A stretch of DNA of 21,899 nucleotides from IMG/VR virus record IMGVR_UViG_2636415712_000011; one strand, written 5' to 3'. The notes beneath the pieces were generated by a model. It worked only from the letters and a program-made list of their open reading frames with translations, made no database searches and was not told the origin of the DNA. Made by a program: the position numbers and the translations under genes. Source of the DNA: a virus (taxonomy: Duplodnaviria; Heunggongvirae; Uroviricota; Caudoviricetes). Each line of letters starts with the position of its first letter. The first letter of the stretch is position 1. Shown here piece by piece: positions 17,408 through 19,516 of the stretch.

Positions 17408-18840
17408 TACCCCTTATAATGGGGTGTTAGCCAGCCAGACCCGGCATGATTACTGCCCCCAGTCGTCCATGATCCGGGGGGGGATGTCACCGGGTCTGGT
17501 GGGGCGCTGGTAACCGCTAATAGGGGTCAGGTCAGGCACTTTTGCCGGGACCGTCTGTAACGTGGATGCCGGTACCTGCTCCCCGTGGTTATCTGGTTAA
17601 CCCATATACAAGGGAGACAGAATGACCGAATCCAGCGATTACGAATCCGTCCAGGTCTTTATCGGCGTTGATGTCGGTAAAGATACGCATCACGCTGTTG
17701 CCATTAATCGTTCAGGTAAACGCCTGTTCGATAAAGCATTACCCAACGACGAAAACAAACTCAGGTCGCTAATATCTGACCTGAAACAACATGGTCAGAT
17801 ACTGCTGGTTGTTGATCAGCCAGCTACCATCGGTGCGTTACCTGTCGCCGTTGCCCGCTCAGAAGGAGTCCTTGTCGGATACCTCCCTGGACTGGCCATG
17901 CGCCGCATAGCCGACTTACACGCCGGTGAAGCTAAAACTGATGCTCGTGACGCTGCCATCATTGCCGAAGCTGCCCGTACCCTGCCTCACGCGCTACGCA
18001 CGCTGAAACTGGCTGACGAGCAAATCGCCGAACTCTCCATGCTCTGCGGCTTCGATGATGATCTTGCCGCACAGACAACGCAGGCCAGCAACCGTATCCG
18101 CGGCCTTCTGACCCAGATACATCCGGCACCGGAGCGCGTTCTCGGTCCGAGACTTGAGCACCCGGCGGTACTCGATCTTCTCCAGCGATATCCCTCACCA
18201 GAAAAACTCGCTTCGCTGGGTGAGAAGAAGCTGGCAGCCCAGCTCTGCAAACTTGCGCCTCGTCTGGGTAAACGCCTTGCAGCAGACATAGCTCAGGCAC
18301 TGGCCGAACAAACCGTCGTCGTTCCCGGCACGAATGCCGCTGCCGTAGTACTGCCACGTCTGGCACTCCAGCTCATCACGCTGCGTAAGCAAAGAGACGA
18401 GGTGGCGCTTGAGGTAGAACAGCGAGTTCTTGCTCACCCTCTTTACCCGGTCCTGACCAGTATGCCCGGAGTCGGTGTCAGGACCGCAGCCAGACTCCTC
18501 ACCGAGGTCGCCTGCCGCGCCTTCGCCTCTGCCGCACATCTCGCTGCTTATGCTGGCCTTGCGCCGGTAACTCGGCGATCCGGCTCGTCAATACGCGGTG
18601 AGCATCCCTCGCGACGGGGTAATAAAGCTCTCAAACGGGCGTTGTTCCTGTCGGCCTTCGCCGCGCTCAGGGATCCGCTCTCCAGGGCTTACTACACCCG
18701 CAAAATGAGTCAGGGAAAACGACACAATCAGGTGCTTATCGCCCTGGCGAGACGACGCTGCGACGTTCTGTTCGCCATGATGCGCGACGGGACTTTTTAT
18801 ACCCCGCAGGGGTCATAACATGCTTGACAACTTAATAGGG
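17408..18840 (+). mobile_element. IS110-family insertion sequence (boundaries approximate)
   Basis: DEDD-type transposase flanked by non-coding DNA. It sits exactly where the phage head and lysis genes are missing. Ends are inferred from a putative circle-junction promoter (TTGACA 18824..18829, TATAAT 17415..17420), not from repeats. Confidence 0.55.
17622..18818 (+). CDS. IS110-family (DEDD) transposase/recombinase, 398 aa
   Basis: N-terminal VFIGVDVGKDTHHAVAI motif and C-terminal GVGVRTAARLL...YAGLAPVTRRSGSS region typical of IS110-family transposases; AGGGAG SD 6 nt upstream of ATG. Confidence 0.9.
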   Translation: MTESSDYESVQVFIGVDVGKDTHHAVAINRSGKRLFDKALPNDENKLRSLISDLKQHGQILLVVDQPATIGALPVAVARSEGVLVGYLPGLAMRRIADLHAGEAKTDARDAAIIAEAARTLPHALRTLKLADEQIAELSMLCGFDDDLAAQTTQASNRIRGLLTQIHPAPERVLGPRLEHPAVLDLLQRYPSPEKLASLGEKKLAAQLCKLAPRLGKRLAADIAQALAEQTVVVPGTNAAAVVLPRLALQLITLRKQRDEVALEVEQRVLAHPLYPVLTSMPGVGVRTAARLLTEVACRAFASAAHLAAYAGLAPVTRRSGSSIRGEHPSRRGNKALKRALFLSAFAALRDPLSRAYYTRKMSQGKRHNQVLIALARRRCDVLFAMMRDGTFYTPQGS

Positions 18841-19013
18841 GCCCCCCCCGACAGACCTGTGCTATCGGAAAGAAAAAAGGCCATCAGCAAAACTCTGATG
18901 ACCTGAATCACCTTTACCAATATTGTATGAAAAAACACGCACGACTAATTGACAATAATTTTCATTTCCATTAAAAAAGATCGCGTAGCATTCTTAATTC
19001 ATGAGGAACTTTA

Positions 19014-19078
19014 CCCGCCAGCAATCTGAGTAGCGAAAGCTGTTCATCCCCAATGTTTTTGCTGGCGGGTCCTTTTTT
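19014..19078 (+). terminator. Terminator-like long hairpin on the plus strand
   Basis: Perfect 10-bp inverted repeat CCCGCCAGCA / TGCTGGCGGG around a 36-nt loop, followed by T6 on the plus strand only. Confidence 0.35.
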
Positions 19079-19516
19079 CTACGGTCCTCCTCCCCGGAGG
19101 GGGGCATTTCATTATTTTTCTAATCGTTACTGGTGAGAAGGCGGAAGAAAAAGCCAGTTCTTCGCCCCTAAATAACAGCATGATTCCAGTCCATGCAAAA
19201 TCTGATTTCCAGCTCACACATACCGAGCGCTGTACAAAAAACCGCCAGCCAAGGCAGTTAAGAGTGTGTTCCCGGGGTTTGCTTAGAATATTTTGTAAGT
19301 TGTCCGAAGAGATATTTACAACACCAGAATGATGAATCATCAGTCCCCTGCCAGAGGTTCACTACGTAACCTGACCGACAATGCACCATTCTGGTGCTGA
19401 AAAAAGAGCACTGGAACTGCAACAAAACAACATCACAGAACAGGAGATGGTAAGGAGTCAGACATTCCCACACAATATTGTGTCAGTGCAAATAACAACC
19501 TTCGTCTCAAATCTCG

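Follow-up and report, generated by a model that had tools for sequence, protein, structure and literature searches.

A lambdoid late-operon spacer next to ISEc20 and its predicted terminators, tRNA-linked hairpin and candidate antisense RNA

Open reading frame (ORF)-poor DNA adjoining a transposase gene in the viral record IMGVR_UViG_2636415712_000011 (Caudoviricetes) raises the question of whether it belongs to the insertion sequence (IS), as the site of a guide RNA, or to the phage genome in which the element resides. The interval concerned, 18819–19516 of the 21,899-nt stretch of DNA analyzed here (hereafter referred to as the window), begins one base past the transposase stop codon (TAA, 18816–18818) and ends just before four transfer RNA (tRNA) genes on the minus strand. 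An earlier note on this DNA had considered both a seekRNA located downstream of the transposase and a degraded phage remnant. Our analysis identifies the interval, with a probability of roughly 0.8, as the right end of the element ISEc20 joined to an intact non-coding spacer of a lambdoid late operon, which carries two putative terminators (t1 and t2), a long hairpin and an antisense unit, all of them predicted RNA elements. The coordinates of these and neighboring features are collected in Table 1.

The transposase contains the Pfam domains DEDD_Tnp_IS110 and Transposase_20, matches the NCBIfam entry 'IS110 family RNA-guided transposase' and has near-identical copies in RefSeq annotated as 'IS110-like element ISEc20 family'. 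The ends of the element were mapped by aligning the window with four ISEc20 copies in unrelated settings, located on a virulence plasmid, in an O145 prophage, in a fimbrial region and in an interrupted hydrolase gene. Conservation extends on the left to GTTACTTTATTCG (~17394), preceded by a C-rich pentamer, and on the right, in five ISEc20 copies, to ...CTTAATAGGGGC(A/C)CCCCCC (18841–18849), beyond which the flanks are unrelated. The 674 bp from 18843 to 19516 are 99.0–99.9% identical to IS-free prophages in nine complete Escherichia coli genomes, with the match starting at 18843 or 18844, and the sequence from 18843 onward is also present in many viral contigs. In FDAARGOS_943, a gap of 6 nt separates the start of the match from the start codon of a class II holin gene, and the match stops one base short of tRNA-Gly; the empty site in an IS-free relative reads ATATCCCGCCCCCCCGACAGACC, with the holin ATG 6 nt to the left of the match. 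Because the five copies diverge at this point and the IS-free relatives match from 18843/18844, no more than 31 nt of the interval can be assigned to ISEc20.

The sequence targeted by ISEc20, CCCCCCCGACAGACC, is a C-run: the right flank of other copies reads C(A/C)CCCCCC and their left flank CCCCC, CACCC or CCGCC, and the C-run at the present junction corresponds, on the late-operon strand, to the G-rich ribosome-binding region of the holin gene. With a C-run in the target, the crossover cannot be assigned to a single position. The self-complementary G4C8 block and the A-tracts listed in the earlier note are both present, and the aligned ends indicate that the apparent palindrome is the IS terminus GGGG (18838–18841) abutting the C-run of the target (C8, 18842–18849).

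On the minus strand, the late operon runs in the order Q, tR'-like terminator, tRNA array and spacer, and continues in relatives with holin, lysozyme, Rz, terminase and head genes. The spacer thereby lies between Q/pR'-tR' and holin on the late-operon strand, the position of the lambdoid moron site; this Q-holin gap is home to Shiga toxin, other morons and several virulence-linked small RNAs (sRNAs). Beside the IS, the holin-to-major-capsid segment (~10.2 kb) is absent: the flanks at 17359–17393 and 18842–18849 of the window lie 10.2 kb apart in enteroinvasive E. coli (EIEC) strain CFSAN029787, where the missing segment occupies positions 342–10524 of the corresponding locus (L223). Having lost its holin, lysis, terminase and head genes, the prophage is, on its gene content, defective; the spacer itself, compared with its IS-free relatives, is intact. 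What had been described as a possible degraded phage remnant is hence phage-derived, and the degradation resides in the neighboring ~10-kb deletion.

Sensitive similarity searches resolved the spacer into a mosaic of two modules with different distributions. Module A, the tRNA trailer, recurs in UMNK88 and in other prophages that have quite different Q genes and lysis cassettes, whereas the holin-proximal module B always adjoins an S21-type holin or its remnant, including on ColV-type plasmids beside iss. On pECAZ159_1, and at ~640 other plasmid places, module B is found without a holin on ColV-type virulence plasmids, by Rz/Rz1 fragments and iss; the candidate antisense unit that it contains has thus travelled with the iss phage fragment. 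A holin-anchored search covering 62 loci from other species did not find module B outside E. coli and Shigella, and the spacer shows no similarity to the DLP12 nmpC-essD region of K-12. A terminator scan returned 10 sites, against 3.0 ± 2.1 in shuffled sequences. Rfam was searched with the window, using both the gathering threshold and E ≤ 10, and with five relatives, using the gathering threshold; only tRNAs and one unrelated sok match were detected, and no family for the long hairpin.

This long hairpin, the best-conserved part of module A, was absent from the earlier note together with the other minus-strand structures of the spacer (terminator-like hairpins at 18904→18878 and 19259→19240; long hairpin at 19403→19315). 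Its predicted folding energy is −40.4 kcal/mol on the minus strand (z = −4.2) versus −23.9 kcal/mol on the plus strand. A pattern scan of viral contigs (at least 120 loci) and other loci identified at least 131 occurrences, with 29 distinct cores among the matches listed. In 122 of the 131 matches listed, a tRNA-Gly(tcc) gene detected with ARAGORN on the same strand ends 126–143 nt upstream of the hairpin. Across 41 distinct hairpin sequences, 97.8% of consensus-pair cells are paired, compared to 33–56% when the 3' partners are slid by one to three columns, and the 28 consensus pairs of helix 1 reach 98.4%. In the main helix, 17 of the 28 pairs show one-sided variation, with every change compatible with G-U pairing. 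On the opposite strand only 76.4% of cells pair, and the sense strand is the more stable in all 41 sequences (mean minimum free energy −43.3 versus −21.8 kcal/mol). The predicted helix provides the ~20 bp or more of near-continuous double-stranded RNA that characterize RNase III substrates, and on this model the hairpin is most likely a double-strand-specific (RNase III-type) processing or stabilizing site. A literature search for a described tRNA-linked hairpin, or for the spacer sequences themselves, returned nothing relevant, its one 12-mer match being a lambda ori mutagenesis primer.

Downstream of the long hairpin, t1 has the G+C-rich stem and U-run of an intrinsic terminator. Its stem is kept and its loop is variable in UMNK88-type trailers that are otherwise ~70% identical, and a U-G pair present in the window is valid on the minus strand only. 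Most prophages (~1944–2060 of locus L018, loci L092 and L082, and ~40 other viral loci) carry instead of t1, after the tRNA-linked hairpin, a ~105-nt element closed by GAGGCG/CGCCTC, with several internal hairpins in a cloverleaf-like arrangement and no Rfam match. At the other end of the tRNA array, a promoter-like TTGCAx-N17/18-TAT(T/C)AT sequence common to six prophages (the window and five others) suggests that the phage tRNAs are expressed independently of Q. With this shared promoter and t1, the array looks like a self-contained unit comprising promoter, four tRNAs, ~115 nt, the ~90-nt hairpin and a terminator, and its site between pR' and the lysis genes fits the moron model. The closest described arrangements are tRNA 3' external transcribed spacers (3'ETS), such as 3'ETS(leuZ), and morons. 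Like these, module A lies directly 3' of the last tRNA on the same strand, with an intrinsic terminator and its own promoter; unlike module A, described 3'ETS RNAs have no counterpart of the ~90-nt hairpin. An sRNA located by a pseudo-tRNA-Gly in prophage PP10 of strain E2348/69 was set apart by gene context alone, as it is associated with a portal gene and with no tRNA array, Q or holin.

In module B, t2 likewise combines a G+C-rich stem with a U-run (−14.6 kcal/mol, z = −3.6). In intact relatives it would end ~35–40 nt upstream of the holin ATG, and its pairing is preserved in variants via G-U pairs that exist on the minus strand only. Counting terminators ahead of 53 class II holins with a custom scan proved too permissive to use: within 100 nt of the holin start codon, sense terminators were called in 57% of cases versus 39% of controls, and antisense terminators in 79% versus 78%.

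The plus strand of module B carries the inverted repeat that the earlier note had described as a 10-bp stem with a 36-nt loop followed by T6. The repeat is indeed perfect and the T6 (19073–19078) is in place, while the arms (19013–19024 and 19059–19070) measure 12 bp and are separated by 34 nt; for a perfect inverted repeat of 12 bp with up to 40 nt between its arms, the chance expectation is about 0.0016 per 698 nt. The RNA from 19010 to 19080 has a predicted folding energy of −28.8 kcal/mol (z = −5.9), matched by none of 200 shuffles. The 12-bp stem (8 G-C pairs) is followed by UCC and U6, as in an intrinsic terminator, with the 34-nt interior and its own stem being atypical. Among 14 variants, variation is confined to 2 of 40 columns in the stem but affects 85 of 246 in the rest of module B (Fisher P = 6e-5), a sign of purifying selection on the hairpin. 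One of the two stem changes yields a G-U pair valid on the plus strand only, and the inner-stem G-U pairs and the U-run likewise exist on that strand alone; all four substitutions inside the hairpin that distinguish the window from the AR_0086 type sit at unpaired positions. The earlier suggestion that the hairpin would terminate plus-strand transcripts is in keeping with this conserved, strand-specific and terminator-like predicted structure. The hairpin predates the ISEc20 insertion, and, at 170 nt past the IS, any stopping of transposase read-out would be incidental. A second plus-strand hairpin immediately beyond it (z = −1.8) is poorly conserved, its stem being broken in AR_0086 and in plasmid variants, and is probably not functional.

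Upstream of the plus-strand hairpin, a candidate sigma-70 promoter is oriented against the late operon, facing away from the holin gene, with a predicted start at ~18985. Its TTGACA is invariant, and its −10 hexamer is kept at a 17-nt spacing, in all 14 distinct module B variants (four lineages). Given the conserved, strand-specific hairpin and the invariant TTGACA, 18985–19078 is best read as a putative ~95-nt RNA antisense to the late transcript, with the hairpin as its intrinsic terminator. The chief rival to this reading is that the hairpin is a stand-alone reverse terminator with no dedicated small RNA, being either an insulator, which would block antisense transcription from the lysis/moron side from entering the tRNA and Q region, or the leftover of a lost antisense moron gene. 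The conservation and strand specificity of the hairpin and its U-run suit such a terminator equally, the −10 of the proposed promoter is poor and was not called by the scan, and antisense morons such as nmpC do lie between Q and holin in DLP12. The spacer, as noted, bears no resemblance to that DLP12 region, and a stand-alone terminator leaves aside a perfect, invariant TTGACA placed 59 nt upstream, with a conserved A-rich −10 at 17 nt as in verified PasA units. We regard the stand-alone terminator as a serious contender, albeit one with the odds clearly against it.

PasA offers the nearest precedent for the candidate antisense RNA. This 85-nt, Hfq-dependent sRNA has been verified by Northern blot in enteropathogenic E. 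coli (EPEC) E2348/69, and EcOnc51/52 are the enterohaemorrhagic E. coli (EHEC) counterparts of PasA/PasC; PasA, PasC and PasD1 are all directly adjacent to the holin/lysozyme operon (Pearl Mizrahi et al., 2021, PMC8550237; Zhu, Shabalina and Storz, 2026, bioRxiv 10.64898/2026.05.13.724894). PasA maps to 743499→743415 of NC_011601, antisense, between an upstream gene and a class II holin, and prophage PP2 of E2348/69 has an unrelated sense terminator at the equivalent place, ~50 nt upstream of its class II holin. Like PasA and PasC, the candidate would occupy the non-coding gap that immediately precedes a class II holin gene and be transcribed against the late operon, with a similar promoter layout (TTGACA-N17-T(C/G)A(G/A)AA in the verified PasA units, TTGACA-N17-TAAAAA here), a terminator stem containing GCCAGC followed by a U-run, and a sense-strand terminator between the RNA and the holin. 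Unlike PasA, it has a larger hairpin (12 + 8 bp) and a tRNA trailer instead of a sialate esterase gene as its upstream neighbor, and it is a prediction. Smith-Waterman alignments of the candidate with PasA, its downstream twin and PasC were no better than with shuffled sequences (288, 520 and 861 of 1000 shuffles scored as high or higher), and an nhmmer profile of the three did not match 18940–19085. Assignment of the candidate to the PasA/PasC family by MAFFT alignment looked suggestive and was rejected as not significant. Judged by layout and sequence, the candidate is built like a PasA and is not demonstrably one.

A second precedent is provided by the convergent sRNA pairs, with the anti-sRNAs AsxR and AgvB, that have been described in lambdoid prophages of EHEC at the moron site, which lies downstream of pR' (Tree et al., 2014, PMC4104026). 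As in those pairs, the spacer lies between a Q-dependent promoter and the lysis genes, and t1 and the antisense terminator face each other ~155 nt apart; in contrast to them, the predicted RNA is ~95 nt long, versus 51–60 nt. The Rfam families AsxR, AgvB, STnc100 and Esr41 gave no match at E ≤ 10, and none at the gathering threshold, in 17300–20050.

Two unannotated, conserved RNA-like elements thus emerge from the spacer; in general type they resemble the terminators and sRNAs already known from prophage moron sites. It is conceivable, and we advance it tentatively, that they represent two undescribed lambdoid regulatory RNAs: a tRNA-Gly(tcc)-linked hairpin of ~90 nt, present in well over 100 prophages, with a processing or insulating role, and a holin-proximal antisense RNA of the same build as PasA yet unrelated to it in sequence. 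Sequence comparison establishes the identities and boundaries, the mosaic structure, the strand-specific conservation of three hairpins and the linkage of the long hairpin to tRNA-Gly; transcription, termination and processing within the spacer are what we infer from these elements. In a lysogen, phage tRNA transcripts would stop at t1, with t2 as a second barrier, and the lysis genes would stay silent, while Q-modified polymerase would read through both t1 and t2. The long hairpin would act at the RNA level to separate the tRNA precursor from downstream sequence, and the plus-strand RNA might pair with the late transcript, damping leaky late transcripts, or act on targets in trans, in the manner of the verified sRNA PasA, which occupies the equivalent position. 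If this is correct, the ~90-nt hairpin uncouples constitutive tRNA expression from the lysis genes, and a sense terminator plus antisense sRNA before the holin constitutes a recurrent, independently evolved lysis-control module. Both elements, if real, bear on how prophages silence their lysis genes while expressing tRNAs. The tRNA-linked hairpin (more than 100 prophages) and the PasA-like unit (~1,500 E. coli records, including ColV-type plasmids by iss) are, moreover, cheap candidates to look for in existing RNA-seq data.

As with the missing similarity to PasA, several observations weigh against this interpretation. All of the spacer RNAs are predicted from sequence. In the long hairpin, only two pairs have changed on both sides (e.g., AU:24, GC:12, GU:4), its support coming mostly from one-sided, G-U-compatible changes and from strand asymmetry, and its RNase III role is a guess from helix length. 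In the window t1 is weak, with 7 pairs and a z-score of −0.8 for the surrounding fold. The −10 of the candidate antisense promoter (TAAAAA) is also weak and, since it lacks the final T, went unlisted in a consensus scan. The four module B lineages, from E. coli and Shigella, are closely related and not independent, so that no compensatory changes are available and the argument is one of absent stem substitutions; the confinement of module B to these hosts likewise precludes a deep covariation test.

The interval might alternatively be non-functional, decaying filler of a dead prophage. The prophage is indeed defective, with its lysis and head genes lost and IS elements flanking the region. We consider this improbable, as the same sequence persists in prophages retaining holin-to-head gene sets and conservation is non-random in both modules, as seen in the 97.8% pairing across 41 distinct long hairpins and in the 2 of 40 variable stem columns, against 85 of 246, in module B.

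A coding function is less probable still. The earlier note had reported no plus-strand ORF of 60 or more codons; the region is ORF-poor as stated, although one 61-aa plus-strand ORF touches the interval, extending antisense into tRNA-Gly. In favor of small proteins encoded on the minus strand (98 or 71 aa), an identical 98-aa protein is annotated on 94 contigs, 287 members make up its cluster at 90% identity (Shigella or E. coli throughout among the matches listed), and a different hypothetical coding sequence is annotated over the long hairpin in strain E66. The E66 protein, however, is unrelated in sequence to the window ORF, neither the 98-, 71- nor 61-aa ORF has a Pfam or PHROG match, and the E. 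coli sequence with 99.9% identity carries no annotated gene in RefSeq. The 98-aa ORF, furthermore, spans the border of the two independently assorting modules and is broken by 1–3-nt indels in module B relatives. The 12-mer GAATGGTGCATT in the long hairpin is invariant at every codon position which, together with the lack of a conserved reading frame, argues for RNA rather than coding constraint. The three ORFs were accordingly rejected as genes.

Least credible of all, and in effect refuted, is the proposal that the region 3' of the transposase encodes a guide (seek or bridge) RNA, since, for all that the transposase belongs to the DEDD/IS110 family and that IS1111-type members carry a non-coding region downstream of the gene, ISEc20 stops 23–31 nt past the stop codon, IS-free genomes contain everything from 18843 on, and a 232-nt upstream non-coding region already matches the target and the element's own ends. 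The end-to-end alignment with a phage intergenic region that the earlier note had named as one half of what would speak against a guide RNA is the one found in the nine IS-free genomes. The non-coding region lies upstream of the transposase in the IS110-type layout and downstream, within the IS between the stop codon and the right end, in the IS1111-type layout (PMC13604230). With 232 nt upstream and only 23–31 nt downstream, ISEc20 is of the IS110 type, not the IS1111 type. Its upstream region probably encodes a bridge RNA that has separate target and donor loops, the target loop being programmed for the poly-C site, as suggested by its short complementarities to target and left end and its identity to the right end; counting against this assignment, the matches behind it are short. 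Like IS110-type bridge RNA (IS621) and IS1111/IS110 seekRNA systems, ISEc20 combines a DEDD transposase with a two-stem-loop non-coding region matching the target and ends; the putative guide region, however, lies upstream of the gene and outside the interval, which is target DNA, not IS DNA. Together with the mapped boundary, this guide-like upstream region removes the seekRNA reading. Before non-coding DNA next to a transposase of the IS110 family is taken for a guide-RNA locus, the ends of the IS need to be mapped.

Table 1. Features of the window discussed in the text. Arrows give the direction on the minus strand.
Feature	Position	Strand	Basis or remark
FI gene, left of the IS	16957–17358	−	Its upstream region is the IS left flank
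ISEc20 left non-coding region, 232 nt	17390–17621	+	Fold: two large stem-loops
CGGGGGGG	17475–17482	+	Complementary to target CCCCCCCG...CAGACC
GGTCTG	17493–17498	+	Complementary to target CCCCCCCG...CAGACC
TAATAGGGG	17518–17526	+	Identical to final 9 nt of ISEc20 right end
GTAACG	17557–17562	+	Complementary to left end CGTTAC
Transposase ORF	17622–18818	+	ORF list
ISEc20 right end, 23 nt past transposase stop	18819–18841	+	Five copies identical to ...CTTAATAGGGG, then diverge
C8 run, IS/target junction	18842–18849	.	Empty-site comparison and other ISEc20 flanks
Module B, holin-proximal	18843–19218	Both strands carry elements	84–87% identity, ~1,500 E. coli records
Putative terminator t2, 10-bp stem (18904→18878) then UUUUUUCUUUC	18868–18904	−	Terminator scan
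Candidate sigma-70 promoter, TTGACA (18949–18954), N17, TAAAAA (18972–18977)	18949–18977	+	Read from sequence
Plus-strand hairpin, 12-bp outer and 8-bp inner stem, GAAA loop, U6	19013–19078	+	Inverted repeat and fold
Second plus-strand hairpin (GUCCUCCUC/GGGGGGC)	19084–19105	+	Terminator scan
ORF, 98 aa	19044–19340	−	Annotated hypothetical in Shigella
Module A, tRNA trailer	19219–19516	−	~70% identity to sequence 3' of tRNA-Thr and tRNA-Gly in other prophages
Putative terminator t1, stem AACUGCC/GGCGGUU then U-run	19233–19259 (19259→19233)	−	Terminator scan; trailer end
ORF, 71 aa	19258–19473	−	ORF list
Long hairpin, 34 consensus pairs	19315–19403 (19403→19315)	−	Fold and conservation; companion of phage tRNA-Gly(tcc)
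ORF, 61 aa	19381–19566	+	Antisense into tRNA-Gly
Linker, tRNA-Gly 3' end to long hairpin	19404–19517	−	~70% identity to UMNK88 and other prophages
tRNA-Gly(tcc)	19518–19592	−	tRNA search
tRNA array: Gly(tcc), Thr(tgt), Arg(tct), CAT-anticodon tRNA	19518–19827	−	tRNA search
Promoter-like TTTGCA-N18-TATTAT	19837–19866 (19866→19837)	−	10 nt upstream of first tRNA
tR'-like terminator	19934→19922	−	Terminator scan
Q gene	20004–20801	−	Pfam Phage_antiter_Q

Several further observations concern ISEc20 and the surrounding prophage. A TTGACA at 18824–18829, inside the ISEc20 right end, is probably the −35 half of a promoter formed on circularization of the element. The left deletion junction falls inside the capsid-FI intergenic hairpin and retains a CCGCC pentamer matching the left half of the holin-side target ATATCCCGCC; the ~10-kb loss is consistent with an adjacent deletion and also with recombination of one ISEc20 copy with another. 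In E. coli O145 95-3192 (3001–4476 of locus L004), ISEc20 lies between prophage tRNAs and the small terminase gene, with the lysis cassette again absent, which raises the possibility that the element recurrently inserts into the late regions of lambdoid prophages and causes deletions there. In the literature, ISEc20 receives passing mentions in a few genome-survey papers, the remaining matches being unrelated uses of the string.

IsrK is an RNA of the Gifsy-1 prophage, a short pR'-proximal transcript. Between Q and the tRNAs, 19916–19987 on the minus strand gives a sub-threshold Rfam match to isrK (17.4 bits, E = 1.1) and ends in the tR'-like terminator; the similarity may be one of position alone. 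The minus strand at 20731–21899 holds an IS3-family element, with orfA and orfB fragments, that adjoins and overlaps the 5' end of the Q ORF; Q may for this reason lack its native promoter context or its N-terminus. Past the tail-fiber end of the prophage, at 849–2600 on the plus strand, lies a gene for an IpaH-family type III effector E3 ligase (NCBIfam IpaH_Shig, 563.5 bits), which together with the IS load marks the sequence as a Shigella/EIEC-type ipaH prophage remnant.

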